Shown here: one piece after another, positions 232 through 56,005 of the stretch | Numbering within the stretch: position 1 is the first letter of the stretch | How the letters are laid out: the number at the start of each line of letters is the position of its first letter | Source of the DNA: Octopus vulgaris | Taxonomy: Eukaryota | DNA: 64,000 nucleotides | Reading direction: 5' to 3' | Assembly (NCBI GenBank): GCA_951406725.2 | Contig: OX597819.1 | Span: forward strand, 79,174,001 to 79,238,000 | The notes under the pieces: generated by a model | The model's database searches: none | What the model was told of the DNA's origin: nothing | What the model saw: the letters and a program-made list of their open reading frames with translations, nothing else | Program-made: the position numbers and the translations under genes

Positions 232-235
<4 letters not shown>

Positions 236-714
236 CAATTAAGGACAACTACTTAATAAGGAAAACTTAACAAGAAATTGTCAGGTAGATAGCGTAAGAA
301 CCTCATAAGAGAAAAAATTTCGAAAATAATTATTTCTTATTGAACATATTAATTTATATATAGAGGGCATTATATACATGCCAGAAGGCATTATACATAC
401 ATGCCAAACGCTAAGAGGGACAATTAGTCATTTCTACCAAAAATATTACTAATCCCACCGAATGCAATTTTTCAAAGTAAGACATTTAAAAAATATAGAC
501 CTGTATCACAGTGATTTCATACTTACGTACTCAGCCCTGCTGATGAGTACGTAAGTATGAAATCACTGTGATACAGGTCTATATTTTTTAAATGTCTTAC
601 TTTGAAAAATTGCATTCGGTGGGATTAGTAATATTTTTGGTAGAAATGACTAATTGTCCCTCTTAGCGTTTGGCATGTATGTATAATGCCTTCTGGCATG
701 TATATAATGCCCTC

Positions 715-725
<11 letters not shown>
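232..725. mobile_element. PLE/retrozyme-like insert in (TA)n with a 182-bp fold-back inverted repeat
   Basis: Flanked by (TA)n on both sides. 352-533 is the reverse complement of 544-725. A hammerhead starts at the apex. Confidence 0.75.
535..577 (+). ncRNA. Minimal type I hammerhead ribozyme
   Basis: cctg-CTGATGA-gtac(gtaa)gtat-GAAA-tca(ctg)tga-TA-cagg. All three stems pair and the core is canonical. Confidence 0.85.
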
Positions 726-770
<45 letters not shown>

Positions 771-772
<2 letters not shown>

Positions 773-1302
773 GACGGAGTATCAGTTATATATTGTGAAA
801 AATTATATGGTAATGGACAATATGTCCAATTTTCGGCATATTTGGCATTAGAAATTTTTTCGTTTGCCTTTATTTATAAGTTGTTTATAATTTAACCTTG
901 AAAGGTATTTTTTTCGAAAAAAATTTTATCCTACATTAAATATAAATTTAAGTGTTCACTTCCGGACTCTTTCACTCTGTGAGGGCCTCAGTTCAAATCG
1001 CACGTGTCTTGAATGGGCTGGAGTATTTCTATTTTTTGATGTATTTGGGGTACTTAATTGTGCTCATGACTTAGTGTTTTGCTTCTTCCATAGGTATGAG
1101 TAAGTATCTCATTTATTTCTTTGCCACATTTACCACTGACGAAGGGAGGGTTCTTACGAACTAACCCTGAAATCGGTCCGATATGGTAATAATAGAATTT
1201 TTTAGAAATTTCTGTCGGCTTTTTTTCGAGTAGCGTGCGTATTGTGAAAAAATATATGGTAATGGACAATATGTCCAATTTTCGGCATATCTGGCATTAG
1301 AA

Positions 1303-1306
<4 letters not shown>
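771..1306 (+). mobile_element. Retrozyme/PLE pLTR-like insert: ~449-bp unit plus ~66-bp terminal direct repeat, between (TA)n tracts
   Basis: tattgtgaaaaa...ggcattagaaattt occurs at 791-856 and 1240-1306. One HHR lies inside. Confidence 0.75.
1130..1189 (+). ncRNA. Type I hammerhead ribozyme
   Basis: ttacca-CTGACGA-aggg...ccct-GAAA-tcg(gtc)cga-TA-tggtaa. 6-bp stem I and canonical core. Confidence 0.88.
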
Positions 1307-12520: not shown

Positions 12521-13438
12521 AATGGATGAATGTTTACCGTCAACATGGAAAATTTAATAAACAGTTACCAGGGTAGCAAAATTTACGCAAGTAACAAGGA
12601 TGTAGCGACCTATTCAAAAGTAGAAACTCCGGGTTAATGTGCAGTTATTTGTGTAGTATAAGTAAATAAATGGAGTTGAACGCAGATGCTATTCAAATTC
12701 TTTTACTTTCGACATATGTTTCGAAGACAACATTGGTTTTATTCCAAAGGAATAAACGGTGTAAAATGCAATCTTCTCACCAGGAAAGAAAGAGAGTCTA
12801 TCTCAACAACAAGACATTATAACAATTTTAATGACTGCATAAATGATAAACAGAAGGTTATTAAGTATTTAAAAAAAAAACCGCTAGTAGATTCGACATC
12901 AAAGGCAGATACTAGAAAGAGAAGGGGTAAAGTAATAATAAGTAGAGAACAAATAAAGAGGGATATATTGGTTGAAAAATTTTCAAGGGCTTGGAAGTAG
13001 AATTCTCTATTGAAGTAAAGTGCAAGTTAAACTAACTGTTCAAACTATAAATACTTGTAAAATCTCTTATATGAGCTAAAGGTATGTTTCTGCCAGTACT
13101 TACATTTGTAAGATCGCTCTATAAGTGTGTTAACAAGGTGATTCTTAGAGAAGAGAATATGGAAGAGTTCAGAGTTGCAAATGTTACAAAATCCTTTGCC
13201 CTTATCATAAGGTAAAGATATGGACAGGATGAACTAATCTAACTTAAAATCCTTATTGTTGTCTTTAAGATACCAAACCAATTTACTTAGCCCTGTGCTA
13301 TGACATTTACTGCAATCCCTAAATGAAGAATAATGATTGGAAATTCTCTTAGATAACTGGGAAGAGGATGCGCCAATGTAGAAGTAAACATCGGTACTGC
13401 AAGAAATTTTACATTGGTATATAAAATTCTTGATCTTA
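12521..13438 (-). mobile_element. Penelope-like element 3' end (GIY-YIG endonuclease, 3' UTR and HHR) abutting (TA)n
   Basis: Minus strand reads KNFIYQCKISCSTDVYFYIGASSSQLSKRISNHYSSF...HSTGLSKLVWYLKDNNKDFKLD*FILSISLPYDKGKGFCNICNSELFHIL, typical of a Neptune-like PLE endonuclease. Confidence 0.85.
12706..12788 (-). ncRNA. Type I hammerhead with long stem II and an A6G core change (probably inactive)
   Basis: Minus strand: ctttc-CTGGTGA-gaaga...tcttc-GAAA-catatg-TC-gaaag. Confidence 0.75.
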
Positions 13439-13499
13439 GGTTTTGTATCTTAAAGACAACAATGAGAATTTTAAGTTTGATTGGTTAATCCTGTTGAAA

Positions 13500-14300
13500 G
13501 TTGACAGAGCTGATGTTCATTATGTTTCCTGCAGTGATATATCATTTTTATCAGATGCCTCAGATGAAAATTTCTCCAAATGTTCTTTGAACACATCCAC
13601 ATTAACACGTCGTAGATCTCTGAGGTTGATTGGGATAGTGTTGAAAATTTGTGGGCCTTTGAAAGCTAAGCTGTTACAGTATTGGCTCCTTACTCTAGAC
13701 GGAGAGGGCGGGAGCTTTAGTACTATGCATTGGTGCTCATCTCAGAGTTTACTATAGATTTCAATCTCAAAGTTAGGTACTCAATATAAAGTACCATTCA
13801 TTTTTCTTCGAAGATTTATTCAAGTAAAATATACAACACATTATTTGTAGAGGTAAAATGATGTTCATATAACATATATATGGCCATATTAGCATCCAGG
13901 AATAAAACATCTGTTGGCGATCGGAGATTAAACTGCTCGATATTTAGATAAACGATATCTATAAGCTTTATTTGCAAGCTCCAGCTGTTTGTCCTGAAAT
14001 GCCCCTTAAAGAGAATTAACTGTTATGATATGTTTCCTAGGTCGGAATTTCGTGGACACTAACATATATTTTGCTGAAGATATAGCGTTTGTACACTGTT
14101 TGACACAGCAAAAACAGCTGTATGACAGTAATTTGTGCAAAGAAATATAATATGTTAAACGTCTTTTAATACAATCCATACATGTGAGTAAAGAAGAGCT
14201 ATGATGGAGAGGAAGTAACCTGTAGCAGTGAAAAAGCACATCAGTCAAAACGTTGGAATGAACGAAGTACGAAGTAAGAATTATGCAGAGAGCTTGTAGA
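13500..14300 (-). mobile_element. Highly degenerate CR1-like LINE 3' fragment
   Basis: Minus strand NSLAFKGPQIFNTIPINLRDLRRVNVDVFKEHLEKF resembles the C-terminus of the ORF at 49518-50897. The upstream boundary is uncertain. Confidence 0.5.
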
Positions 14301-18069: not shown

Positions 18070-18540
18070 TTAGCACTTTTTGAGCCGGTCTTTCAGAAGT
18101 TGCTGTTGTAAGTCCACAGACTACCTTCTCTCTGTCTTTAGCACTTTCTTGAGCCGGTCTTTGTGAATTCAGCTTGTAAGTCCACAGACTATCTTCTTTC
18201 TATCTTTATCACTTTCTTGAGCCGGTCTTTCTGAATTCAGCTTGTAAGTCCACAGACTACCTTCTCTCTGCCTTTAGCACTTTCTTGAGCCGGTCTTTGT
18301 GAATTCAGCTTGTAAGTCTACAGACTATCTTCTTTCTATCTTTATCACTTTCTTGAGCCGGTCTTTCTGAATTCAGCTTGTAAGTCCACAGACTATCTTC
18401 TTTCACTCCTTAGCACTTTCTTGAGCCGGTCTTTCTGAATTCAGTTTGTAAGTCCACAGGCTATCTTCTCTCTGTCTTGAGTACTTTCTTGAGCTGGTCT
18501 TTCTGACGTCGCCGTTGTAAATCTATAGATTATCTCTCTG
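18070..18540. repeat. 68-bp minisatellite, ~7 copies
   Basis: gagc(c/t)ggtc recurs at 18082, 18151, 18219, 18287, 18355, 18423 and 18491. Confidence 0.95.
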
Positions 18541-23175: not shown

Positions 23176-23513
23176 CTCTATACACACACGCGCGCGCGCA
23201 CACACATACACACGTATACATATGCATACATACATACACACATTATATATAATGAATATGAGGGGTTTAGTTCACTGGATATCTAAACGAATAGGTACGC
23301 TGTGTAAGTGCTATAATTGGTCATACGTTAGGTTCCAAATATACAGCTGAGGCTGGAGCTAGGGGTCATTAAGTAGGCTTCTGAGTCAGCAAGTATATTT
23401 TAAAGGAAAAAGGACAAAAAATGGCAGGATGAGTACCTCAAGTCATTTAGAATATTTAATTAGAGTAAGGTGAATTTGAAGTAGTTAATTAATTAGTTAA
23501 TTAATTAATTGGA

Positions 23514-23580
23514 TATCGTGCAGCTGTTTCTGGTGATAGGTTAGCATCTCCATACAGAGGGTATTCCATCATCAGAGACA
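23514..23580 (-). ncRNA. Degenerate type I hammerhead in a (TA)n-flanked insert (~23240-23650)
   Basis: Minus strand: tgtct-CTGATGA-tgg...cca-GAAA-cagctg-CA-cgata. U16.1 is changed to C and stem I has a mismatch. Confidence 0.55.
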
Positions 23581-23650
23581 AGGTATGTATGAAAGTACAG
23601 TTTAAAAAGGAATAAAATAGCAGATAGAAGAATAAAGGGTAAAACAGCAA

Positions 23651-35029: not shown

Positions 35030-35720
35030 TAAAGCGGTGAACCGGCAGAGTCATTAGCAGCACGTCAGGCAAAATGCTTAACGGTATTTCGTCTGCCCCT
35101 ACGTTCTGAGTTCAAATGCCGCCGAGTTCGACTTTGCCTTTCATCCTTTCGGGGTCGATAAATTAAGTACCAGTTACGCACTAGGGTCGATATAATCGAC
35201 TTAATCCGTCTGTCAGTCCTTGTTTGCCTCCTCTCTGTGGGGAGTAAAGAAATAGGTATTTTGTCTGCCGCTACGTTCTGAGTTCAAATTCCGCCGAGGT
35301 CGACTTTGCCTTTTATCATTTCGGGGTCGATTAAATAAGTACCAGTTACGCACTGGGGTCGATATAATCGACTTAATCCGTTTGTCTGTCGTTGTTTGTC
35401 CTCTCTGTGTTTAGCCCCTTGTGGGTAGTAAAGAAATAGGTATTTCGTCTGCCGGTACGTTCTGAGTTCAAATTCCGCCGAGGTCGACTTTGCCTTTCAT
35501 TCTTTCGGGCTCGATTAAATAAGTACCAGTTACGCACTGGGGTCGATATAATCGACTTAATCCGTTTGTCTGTCCTTGTTTGTCCTCTCTGCGTTTAGCC
35601 ACTTGTGGGTAGTAAAGAAATAGGTATTTCATCAGTCTTTACGTCCTAAGTTCAAAAACCGCCAAGGCCGAATTTGTCTTTTATCCTTTCGTGTTCGATA
35701 AAATAAATACCAGCCAAGTT
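35030..35720 (+). repeat. Tandem array of ~184-bp SINE-derived (family B) units
   Basis: ggtatt(t)cgtctgcc...agtaaagaaata units start at about 35084, 35255, 35438 and 35622. Confidence 0.9.
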
Positions 35721-49414: not shown

Positions 49415-50878
49415 AACTTAGAACTTAGAAACTTAGATATGTTTCGACCAAAGATTGGTCCAGGCCATGTCTAACTTAATAGCACCACCTGATAGGATTA
49501 TTCGAATCCTGTTTAAGTCAAGTTTTGTTTATGGTCCATTCAAGTAGTGAGTTCTTGTTGGGTGAGTTGTATCCAATTATGGGTGGCTTATCTGGTATTC
49601 TTTGAAGGAATCTATCCAGACTCCGTTTAAAGTTGATGGGATCCTTTTCCTCTTTGATCTCCCTCGGGACAATGTTAAATAGGGCAGGGCCTGTTGAGGA
49701 AAAGAAATTATGTTGCAGTGTACATGTATGCTGTGATCTTGAATTGGGCAGGGGACGTATGGCCCGTGGTCCCAGTCTTGGATGAACCTTGAAGCTAATG
49801 TTAAGGTCGTTTGGGCAAAGTTGGCGGTATATTCTCCACATCGTACAAATGATGTATCGCTCACGGCGACGCTGGAGAGAGTAAAGTTTCAAGGCTTTAA
49901 GGCGATCCCAATAATCGAGAGCAGCCATGCCTTCAATTCGTTTAGTGAGTGCCCTCTGGGGTGACTCAATCCTGGAGATATTTTGTCTTGTATGGGGAGA
50001 CCACAGTGGGCAGCAATATTCGAGGTGTGGTCGTACAAAGGAGGAGAAAAGTGGTATGATGACACCTTGTTCTCTGGACCGGAAAGTTCTTAAGATCCAG
50101 GAACTCATCCTACGAGCTATATCGACCTTCTTGTTGATGTGTGCACTCCAACTGAGATCGTCATTAACAATTACACCCAGGTCTCTGATATTGTTAGAGG
50201 CTGTGAGCGGTTCCCCTGAAGGAAGAGAGTATGGCTGTTTTAGTGAGGAATTTCTTCCAAAATGCATCAGCTCAAATTTTCCCTCATTCAGTTGCATTTT
50301 GTTTCTGTCTGCCCATTGACTCACAGCATATAGATCAGACTGGAGTTGAGTTCGGTGTGCTTCTTCATTGACGATTTGCTGGAGCTTAGTGTCATCAGCA
50401 AATATTTTCACTTTGTAGTAATGTACGACACTGGAAAGGTCGTTTATGTAAATTATGAAGAGTAGCGGACCCAAAACAGTCCCCTGGGGGACACCGCTGG
50501 TGACTTTTGCTGGGTTTGTGTGGACTCCATCAACTACAACATATTGTGTTCTATTCGCGAGGAAATACTTAATCCAGTGTAGAACTTTTCCACGGATTCC
50601 AACATTTGCCAATTTTGAGAGTAGGATATTATGGTCTACCCTGTCGAACGCTTTACTGAAGTCAAGATATATGACGTCAGAGTTCGAACCTGTTCCCAAG
50701 GCTTTGAGTACATCTTCAATGTGGTGTAAGAGTTGTGTTAGACAGTCCCTGCCACAGCGAAAGCCATGCTGATTTGCATTTAGGAGTTTGTGGGTCTCCA
50801 GGAAGTCAGCTATCCTTGATCTTAACACTCTTTCAAACACTTTAATGATGTAGGAGGTGAGTGAGATTGGGCGATATA
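49415..50878 (-). mobile_element. 5'-truncated CR1-like (Jockey group) LINE
   Basis: RT ORF, short 3' UTR and a (TTCTAAG)-like repeat tail at 49415-49437. Confidence 0.9.
49518..50878 (-). CDS. Non-LTR retrotransposon reverse transcriptase (uninterrupted C-terminal ~450 aa, no native start)
   Basis: Motifs YRPISLTS, NQHGFR, YLDFSKAFDRVDH, SGVPQGTVLGPLLF, FADD, RDLGV and PHLEYC..WSP. Confidence 0.92.
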
Positions 50879-50910
50879 TATAAGAATGTTTTAGCATATT
50901 ATTATTATTA

Positions 50911-51001
<91 letters not shown>

Positions 51002-51005
<4 letters not shown>

Positions 51006-51365
51006 TAGTTTTATTTTTATAATGTGCTTTTACTTCACTACTGATCGCAGCTCTGTGTGCCTTGGGTATGTGCTGTGGTTCGCTGTGATGCTCTGATGGT
51101 TACTGTATTGAATGTGTTTTGCGTAGGATGTGTGCAGTGCCTAGTAGTGCAACTTTCTGTATGTTATATTTATTTGTAAGTCTTGGTGTTTTTGTTATGT
51201 GTTTCTCTGAATATTTTTTTAATCATACTTAATGCGCCCAGTATGATAGGAATTGTTTCTGTTTTTAGATTCCACATTCGAGTTATCTCTATTTCCAGGT
51301 CTTTGTATTTTGAAAGTTTCTCCATTTCTGATAGAGAAACGCTATCATCTGCTGGTATTGCTACA
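51002..51365 (-). mobile_element. Dong/R4-like LINE 3' fragment next to (ATT)n
   Basis: Minus strand EMEKLSKYKDLEIEITRMWNLKTETIPIILGAL. Confidence 0.75.
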
Positions 51366-54430: not shown

Positions 54431-54534
54431 CCGGAGTAAACACAAAAATGTGAAACAAGGTGGAAAAAAGTGTACTCAAATACCAGGGGTAGAGTAATAT
54501 GCTTTATTTAAAAGCAGCAGAAATTCAACAAAAC

Positions 54535-54572
54535 CTGTTACTCGGAGTTTCACGTTCCCGTTCGTCGGACAG
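54535..54572 (-). ncRNA. Minimal type I hammerhead, U4C variant, in a ~150-bp (TA)n-flanked insert (54431-54578)
   Basis: Minus strand: ctgt-CCGACGA-acg(ggaa)cgt-GAAA-ctc(c)gag-TA-acag. Confidence 0.7.
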
Positions 54573-54577
54573 TTCTG

Positions 54578-54638
<61 letters not shown>

Positions 54639-54918
54639 CAACAATTGAGGGTAAAATTAATTAATTAATCAATTTCACCAAGTATTCAGTATACAAAGGG
54701 GCCATTTAAGGCGAATTCAAATTATTACATTATATAAAAGGGCTTAGTAAAATAAATTACTTTGCCGCATACTGAACTCATTAGAAATAGCAGCTAAAAA
54801 AATTTTTTTAAAACTATCTCCAATACTTAAAGAAAATCTCTCTCATATAGTGTTTGCTCAATTCAACTCACGAAAGTATGAGGGTAGAGACATTAAAAAA
54901 TCAAATGCAAAGGTTATT

Positions 54919-54971
54919 TGAGAACGTACGTTTCAAGATTAGTCAAAATCGACACTTCTATCATCAGCTCA
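54919..54971 (-). ncRNA. Type I hammerhead (unit 1)
   Basis: Minus strand: tgag-CTGATGA-taga...tctt-GAAA-cgtacg-TT-ctca. Confidence 0.75.
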
Positions 54972-55476
54972 GAACTCCCTGGTTTGGATTTGAAAACACT
55001 GAAAGTGGGAGCATACCCTTTCGGCCTGTTATCGCTTCTGAAGATCTGCTCAAAACTAACAGTGCTAGCAAATTCAAATATGCAAACGAAGAATTTCTGC
55101 TCTCCCCTTTCCACCAGCGTGGGTTAAAATCAGCAAACACTATGCTTTTTTCGGTAAAATCCGAGGCATTATATAGAGAGAGATGAATTATAATTTCAAC
55201 AATTGAGGGTAAAATTAGTTAATTAATCAATTTCACCAAGTATTCAGTATACAAAGGGACCATTTAAGGCGAATTCAAATTATTACATTATATAAAAGGG
55301 CTTAGTAAAATAAATTACTTTGCCGCATACTGAACTCATTAGAAATAGCAGCTAAAAAAATTTTTTTAAAACTATCTCCAATACTTAAAGAAAATCTCTC
55401 TCATATAGTGTTTGCTCAATTCAACTCACGAAAGTATGAGGGTAGAGACATTAAAAAATCAAATGCAAAGGTTATT

Positions 55477-55529
55477 TGAGAACGTACGTTTCAAGATTAG
55501 TCAAAATCGACACTTCTATCATCAGCTCA
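55477..55529 (-). ncRNA. Type I hammerhead (unit 2)
   Basis: Same sequence as 54919-54971, 558 bp downstream. Confidence 0.75.
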
Positions 55530-56005
55530 GAACTCCCTGGTTTGGATTTGAAAACACTGAAAGTGGGAGCATACCCTTTCGGCCTGTTATCGCTTCTGAA
55601 GATCTGCTCAAAACTAACAGTGCTAGCAAATTCAAATATGCAAACGAAGAATTTCTGCTCTCCCCTTTCCACCAGCGTGGGTTAAAATCAGCAAACACTA
55701 TGCTTTTTTCGGTAAAATCCGAGGCATTATATAGAGAGAGATGAATTATAATTTCAACAATTGAGGGTAAAATTAATTAATTAATCAATTTCACCAAGTA
55801 TTCAGTATACAAAGGGACCATTTAAGGCGAATTCAAATTATTACATTATATAAAAGGGCTTAGTAAAATAAATTACTTTGCCGCATACTGAACTCATTAG
55901 AAATAGCAGCTAAAAAAAATTTTTTTTAAACTATCTCCAATACTTAAAGAAAATCTCTCTCATATAGTGTTTGCTCAATTCAACTCACGAAAGTATATAC
56001 ATATA

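Follow-up and report, generated by a model that had tools for sequence, protein, structure and literature searches.

Array anatomy and the minus-strand hammerheads

At positions 54636-55996 of the window, by which we mean the whole 64-kb stretch of DNA that was analysed, a 558-bp unit is repeated head to tail. As assembled, the array comprises 2.44 copies with a period of exactly 558. The array, its predicted ribozymes and its flanks are the following.

54636..55996, minus strand: whole insertion of 2.44 units; the RNA sense is the minus strand, with the 3' end at 54636 and the 5'-truncated end at 55996
54636..55193, minus strand: full unit 1, from repeat self-comparison
55194..55751, minus strand: full unit 2, from repeat self-comparison
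55752..55996, minus strand: partial unit 3, 245 bp, lacking the ribozyme
55477..55529, minus strand: type I hammerhead motif, upstream copy, from the structural descriptor; predicted cut between 55481 and 55480
54919..54971, minus strand: type I hammerhead motif, downstream copy, identical to the upstream one; predicted cut between 54923 and 54922
54923..55480, minus strand: predicted 558-nt monomer between the cut sites, from fold prediction; 34% GC, circular MFE -147 kcal/mol
54579..54635, no strand: (TA)28 target tract at the 3' end, a clean repeat
55997..56110, no strand: short TA run followed by (TATG)n/(TAGG)n at the 5'-truncated end, from the sequence

The two full units differ at 2 of 558 bases, and unit 3 departs from unit 2 at two substituted bases and by one base inserted in an A/T run. 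The array is a pure tandem with no unique internal region, and no further copy of the unit was found in the rest of the 64-kb window. At the left end, the terminal bases of the (TA)28 tract agree at 4 of 5 positions with the TATA that precedes the equivalent point inside the unit. The right end (55996) halts at a TAT microhomology. A target-site duplication is not discernible at the array, the target being a microsatellite. An earlier note on this DNA, made from the sequence alone, had described a retrozyme-like concatemer of about 2.4 nearly identical units whose ends lie away from the ribozyme. This description was borne out: the tandem is exact, each full unit carries a ribozyme motif, and the array ends are separated from the nearest predicted cut site by 287 nt and about 515 nt. 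The same note had placed (TA)n at both ends, which holds for the clean tract on the left and only in part for the right, where a short TA run gives way to (TATG)n/(TAGG)n.

The minus-strand hammerhead cores start at 55525 and 54967, spaced by 558, and show the palindromic stem III, the GUU site and the U-U below stem II that had been noticed before. In the upstream copy, stem I of 4 bp is formed by 55529-55526 and 55480-55477, CUGAUGA lies at 55525-55519, stem II (a U.U followed by 3+3 bp) at 55518-55493 and GAAA at 55492-55489. The elements follow each other in the order CUGAUGA, stem II, GAAA, palindrome AACGUACGUU and GUU site. Stem III is the palindrome AACGTACGTT, and cleavage is predicted after GUU. 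An alternative UUC cleavage register was considered by eye and ruled out, as it would disrupt stems I and III. With the structural descriptor, 5 hammerhead motifs were found in the window, whereas 30 locally shuffled windows yielded 2 in total, or 0.07 per shuffle, and the motifs are therefore not due to chance. The Rfam hammerhead models did not match the array motif, neither at the gathering threshold nor at E<=10; the Rfam matches at E<=10 were microRNA models on TA/TATG runs and other chance matches. On the plus strand of the array, neither Rfam nor the descriptor found a hammerhead motif. A viroid-like RNA with a symmetric rolling circle was rejected, since the ribozymes do not occur on both polarities.

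The canonical type I core is present, with CUGANGA, GAAA and a NUH site in a three-helix junction. Absent are the G10.1-C11.1 pair, a 6-bp helix I and a 4-bp helix II with a loop-loop contact. The short helix I, the long helix II and the palindromic 15.2-16.2 region are those of the minimal or variant hammerheads of Penelope-like elements (PLEs). GUU is a slow hammerhead cleavage site; in the literature that we searched it appears merely as cleavable, with no cleavage rate given. Having no G10.1-C11.1 pair, a stem I of 4 bp and no evident loop-loop contact, the hammerhead bears the marks of a slow ribozyme and looks weak. The active monomer fold is predicted to lie about 5-9 kcal/mol above the ensemble in 16 local contexts and 5.5 kcal/mol above it in the circle. 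From this cost we infer a hammerhead that is weak yet not locked by a complementary strand. Between two ribozymes, an intermolecular stem III of 8 bp was computed at -9.8 kcal/mol. The palindrome also permits A14-U17 pairing, which would give a 10-bp duplex at -11.6 versus -9.8 kcal/mol. Cleavage as a dimer, releasing a 558-nt monomer, would be consistent with this anatomy. Among the best 40 of 102 family variants, none fell in the 19 core bases (1.3 expected) and 1 fell in the 55 ribozyme bases (3.8 expected). As a sole argument, this conservation is too weak.

The minus-strand circle had a z of -5.6 against 60 dinucleotide shuffles, with 63% of its bases paired, and the plus-strand circle also folds stably (z -4.7). 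Five of six control stretches had z values between -1.4 and +1.0 and the sixth had -5.1. This last stretch, 13001-13558, is likely another structured repeat. When the best 40 of the 102 family variants were compared with the predicted fold, 15 were unpaired, 15 pair-keeping (mostly G.U exchanges), 1 compensated and 9 pair-breaking. The 9 pair-breaking variants compare with 15.1+/-2.6 expected (P 0.02-0.04), a pattern that may be taken as modest backing for selection on the RNA fold.

The longest stop-free frame of the unit, 111 aa on the plus strand, had no homologue by protein search, and no Pfam match was obtained for any of the five stop-free frames of 56-111 aa. A coding role of the 111-aa frame was rejected on these grounds. 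Frame-shifting indels are frequent among the family variants, and the unit is non-coding. The array as an autonomous Penelope-like element was likewise rejected, as it has no RT/GIY-YIG ORF and its longest frame is without a Pfam match; nor does the ORF list of the 64-kb window contain an autonomous Penelope element. A poly(A) signal, a Pol III B box and a tRNA were not found in the unit, and no promoter was identified in it. By eye, the array copy showed no ADAR-type A-to-G bias.

The 558-bp family in public sequencing runs

The unit occurs, whole or in part, in 20 of 24 listed runs, which come from 7 studies and carry three species labels. At least half of its words are contained in 14 listed runs, and none of the runs listed as containing the unit is given as RNA. 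Contigs of four runs (X1, X3, X9 and X17) were aligned to the unit rotated to 55316-55873, so that the array ends and the cut site are internal. X1 is possibly the source of the window itself, and the other three belong to other studies, two of them under a second species label. X3 and X17 are only guessed to be RNA; with a depth of 2.7-17 in X3 and contigs that continue into flanking TA repeats in X17, they were used neither for nor against expression.

From the two DNA runs, 4250 and 2909 contigs were aligned, most of them 90-100% alike. In all four runs, all 30 bins of the unit were covered and the wrap joint from 55873 to 55316 was present (11, 1, 11 and 1 contigs). The array-end position 55752 was bridged with at least 31 letters on each side by X9 record 30 and X17 record 14, and the position 55437 by X3 record 17, X1 record 2 and X17 record 11. 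The share of contigs running into unlike sequence was 0 in both DNA runs. We conclude from the wrap joints and the bridged ends in independent runs that a closed head-to-tail 558-mer exists apart from this assembly. The 558-mer is a large, variable, dispersed multicopy family in more than one species.

These joints bear on two explanations in which the tandem is no product of a retroelement. The array sits among microsatellites, no run contig spans the whole unit, and the array is known from the assembly, all of which would fit an assembly duplication at 54636-55996. Each copy has private differences and every junction is present in independent runs, which makes such a duplication most improbable; at the level of the family, the head-to-tail joints show that the tandem is no assembly artefact. 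Local tandem duplication of one old insertion at the DNA level, a satellite birth that would leave the ribozyme vestigial, is a model treated in a recent preprint (bioRxiv 10.64898/2026.07.22.740005) and would agree with the near-identity of the array copies. We consider it very unlikely here: the head-to-tail form recurs in other individuals and in a second species, also in a diverged copy (X9 record 30), and the array starts at the common 3' end of the family.

The locus had also been put forward as the best one for showing an active circRNA cycle. No other locus in the window has two complete ribozymes, but a Northern blot or RT-PCR would report on the large family and not on the locus. In addition, a linear dimer or a genomic tandem gives a divergent RT-PCR product identical to that of a circle, and the circle is not distinguished. 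The summed contig depth between the 3' end and the cut site, relative to that beyond it, gave ratios of 1.8, 1.4, 3.6 and 1.0. Such ratios would agree with 5' truncation or with stops at the cut site, but they were set aside, contig depth being unsuited to ranking the parts of a stretch. The exact motif was matched 0 times in metagenome contigs and 0 times in viral contigs.

Relation to retrozymes, Penelope-like elements and other families in the window

Metazoan non-LTR retrozymes were described in 2020 (Cervera & de la Pena, PMC7229834). According to the accessible text of that paper, they resemble the array in being non-coding head-to-tail repeats with a type I hammerhead in each unit and a GC content below 50% (34% in the array), and also in a self-paired predicted circle with a ribozyme unblocked by a complementary strand. 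The axolotl hammerhead HHR_Amex2 of the same paper shares with the array hammerhead the U.U below helix II and a 2-bp helix III with a tetraloop. As a monomer it was cleaved to 22% within one hour, and its dimer was cleaved better (PMC7229834). The array differs from these retrozymes in its unit of 558 bp versus 150-450 bp, its GUU site and its lack of an evident loop 1-loop 2 contact, and also in lying in (TA)n with a common 3' end and no discernible target-site duplication (PMC7229834). Cleavage and circles were demonstrated for the described retrozymes (PMC7229834), whereas the array is known from sequence alone.

Non-LTR retrozymes have been tied to the pLTRs of Penelope elements, as non-autonomous PLE derivatives (Li, Clavereau & Pollet 2026, bioRxiv 10.64898/2026.07.22.740005). 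As defined in the accessible text of this preprint, a retrozyme has two consecutive units with complete type I motifs, which are both found in the array. Its unit of 558 bp lies inside the range of 51-972 bp given there, where a low unit number is typical, and the sample presented in that text is without molluscs. In every sequence-level trait that we tested, the array appears as a non-LTR retrozyme.

The hammerheads of Penelope/Neptune pLTRs (Cervera & de la Pena 2014, PMC4209133) also resemble that of the array, having a short helix I, an extended helix II and a small palindromic helix III. In that paper's accessible text, PLE variants with a short helix I and a palindromic helix III are of low activity, and both these pLTR hammerheads and the array have a dimer-dependent design with a low expected activity (PMC4209133). 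Unlike the pLTRs, the array is without an RT/GIY-YIG ORF and without G10.1-C11.1 (PMC4209133). The array could be what remains of an autonomous Penelope/Neptune element, namely its truncated tandem pLTR, after loss of the ORF at this insertion, and the unit would then not be independent. The type I hammerheads of this shape in PLE pLTRs (PMC4209133) and the sister relationship of retrozymes and pLTRs (bioRxiv 10.64898/2026.07.22.740005) agree with such an origin, and a junction into the ORF could be hidden by the short contigs. Against it stand 2.44 units with no ORF remnant, a unit that closes on itself in all four runs and the zero run-on into unlike sequence in both DNA runs. We regard this origin as unlikely.

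Multicopy head-to-tail arrangement, 5' truncation and a microsatellite target are shared with non-autonomous head-to-tail elements of Chlamys such as MRC1 and with the Naiad/Neptune PLEs that target (TA)n (Craig et al. 2021, PMC8557442). As presented in the accessible text of that paper, Naiads are without canonical hammerheads and only remnants of them exist in cephalopods. A Neptune-type partner is therefore the likelier guess.

Three further hammerhead families lie in the window. All are bounded by TA and unrelated in sequence to the 558-bp unit.

234..716, plus strand: hammerhead element with its core at 540 and a palindromic 11-nt stem III, between two TA tracts
772..1306: second retrozyme-like family, 449-bp unit in 1.15 copies with a 67-bp terminal direct repeat and a type I hammerhead at 1136
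54431..54578, minus strand: 148-bp fragment of a third family, unrelated to the array, with the variant core CCGACGA (not CUGANGA) at 54568

The first of these elements contains a 356-bp near-perfect inverted arrangement centred at the start of the ribozyme core, a layout that is the inverted 5'-truncated form typical of Penelope-like insertions. The element at 772-1306 has TA tracts on both sides, and its predicted circle has a z of -3.8 on the ribozyme strand versus -0.5 on the other. The 148-bp fragment lies between two TA tracts in the orientation of the array and is truncated about 10 nt upstream of its core; both it and the core-540 element end shortly upstream of the ribozyme core. The 3' ends of the three elements lie 143 nt (234-716), 123 nt (772-1306) and 108 nt (54431-54578) past the cut site, none of them at the ribozyme. 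With three other hammerhead families in TA tracts of a single window, such elements are commonplace in the genome. A degraded hammerhead-like motif at 23490-23600 on the minus strand, with a core at 23575, fails the stem test. An adjoining TTAA-rich 20-mer matches the 558-bp unit at 95%, and the stretch is possibly an old relative, possibly a chance likeness.

With its larger unit and its unusual GUU site, the array likely extends the non-LTR retrozymes to an octopod. The attribution to an octopod is weakly founded, on the Argonauta hians match of a nearby LINE RT and on a likeness of 35083-35713 to octopus SINEs. The class is already known from many animals, and the array is a further member of it. 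No octopus or cephalopod hammerhead retrozyme family was found described in the literature searched, a search with Repbase and subscription journals outside its scope, and the supplement of PMC7229834 may list more invertebrate families. In the giant squid, 235 Rfam hammerhead matches have been counted (PMC6962438). A repeat annotation of O. vulgaris gives 31 recently active Penelope-like families and, in its accessible text, leaves ribozymes unmentioned (PMC13282606).

Insertion ends, priming and the template

Two contigs of X17, among 18 of 235 loose ends, pass from the unit to TA repeats, one at 55747 and the other at 55754. Both positions are within 5 bases of the left end of the array, which is 55752 in unit terms. 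In the RNA sense, three copies, a small sample, thus have a common 3' end, 287 nt beyond the cut site at a TATA. The match of this TATA to the target tract, 4 of 5 bases at the array, is exact in one other copy. In the predicted circle, the site sits in a weakly paired region between big helical domains. Longer TATATA runs in the unit, at 55728 and 55847, are unused as ends. An 11-base motif at 55722-55734, beyond the 3'-end position of the array, also occurs at the 3' end of the 234-716 element (702-716; E 0.11), which may be chance or an end signal held in common.

Simple copying of a cleaved linear monomer from its 3' end is excluded by a 3' end 287 nt past the cut, since the ribozyme would then mark the end of the copy. 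Penelope-like elements are known for a fixed 3' end, 5' truncation, partial tandems and a bias for (TA)n (PMC8557442). With its position at (TA)n and its distance from the cut site, the common 3' end speaks for target priming of the Penelope type. Taken together, the array is in our judgement quite probably a recent-looking insertion of an abundant non-coding hammerhead repeat, likely a non-LTR retrozyme, that was copied into TA microsatellites by a Penelope-like RT/endonuclease. For the identity as a Penelope-mobilised retrozyme as such, our confidence is high.

A circular-RNA cycle of the 558-nt unit is plausible from its anatomy. A multimeric minus-strand transcript would be cut slowly at GUU, chiefly when two ribozymes pair via the palindromic stem III, and a host ligase of the RtcB type would join the ends of the 558-nt monomer. 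Ligation of this type has been demonstrated in vitro for axolotl and mussel monomers. A Penelope-type enzyme would then nick (TA)n, and the DNA end would prime at the short UAUA, which lies roughly across the circle from the ligation site. Reverse transcription might circle the template 2.44 times and halt at the TAT microhomology. That 558-nt circles accumulate in vivo seems to us an evenly balanced matter, and that the circle is the actual template is conceivable at clearly less than even probability.

An uncleaved linear multimer would account for the insertion equally well. The element would be the same and no circle would be needed: the transcript of an existing tandem would read into the flanking (TA)n, and its (UA)n tail would pair with the nicked target and prime. 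The 3' end would be inherited from the source locus, and the ribozyme would be slow or would trim only some transcripts. The common 3' end lies at a weak TATA while the longer TA runs at 55728 and 55847 are unused, an arrangement more in keeping with an inherited end than with free priming on a circle. The ends of the array far from the cut site and the weak look of the ribozyme agree with this linear template. So do the Xenopus dimers, of which 1 of 9 was cleaved in vitro and 8 were not (bioRxiv 10.64898/2026.07.22.740005), and the non-autonomous head-to-tail PLEs of Chlamys, mostly without hammerheads (PMC8557442). However, the unit is a closed permutation, and its internal junction is without a TA remnant. 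The three 3' junctions are offset from each other by a few bases, and in one of them the joint falls exactly at the internal TATA. The stable fold and the pair-keeping variants suggest selection on a unit-length RNA, and related elements yield abundant circles in coral, mussel and axolotl (PMC7229834). We therefore take the linear multimer as a serious candidate that falls somewhat short of an even chance.

The circle as template with one fixed priming site, an accessible short UAUA about opposite the ribozyme junction that anneals the nicked (TA)n, is a tentative proposal, and the fixed priming site is the part most worth attention. If the proposal is true, the genomic ends would directly document rolling-circle target-primed reverse transcription by an enzyme of the Neptune type. 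According to the accessible part of a review, metazoan retrozymes have no motif that indicates their mobilising partner (PMC7761336). The fixed UAUA would supply the priming signal said to be missing in the retrozyme literature. At least four unrelated hammerhead families in one genome would use the same target, and the GUU/U.U ribozyme would be deliberately slow, letting circles persist. The common 3' end makes the question of a circle or a linear multimer as template testable by end counts in the genome.

Other repeats were found in the window. At 49518-51029, between (TAA)n tracts, lies an intact 5'-truncated LINE RT frame of about 460 aa (PF00078). Its best matches are at 50-59%, and the named match with the highest identity is from Argonauta hians (59%). 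A 68-bp unit is repeated in tandem in 6.4 copies at 18070-18506. At 35083-35713, a 184-bp SINE-like unit, which we take to resemble octopus SINEs, is present in 3.5 tandem copies.
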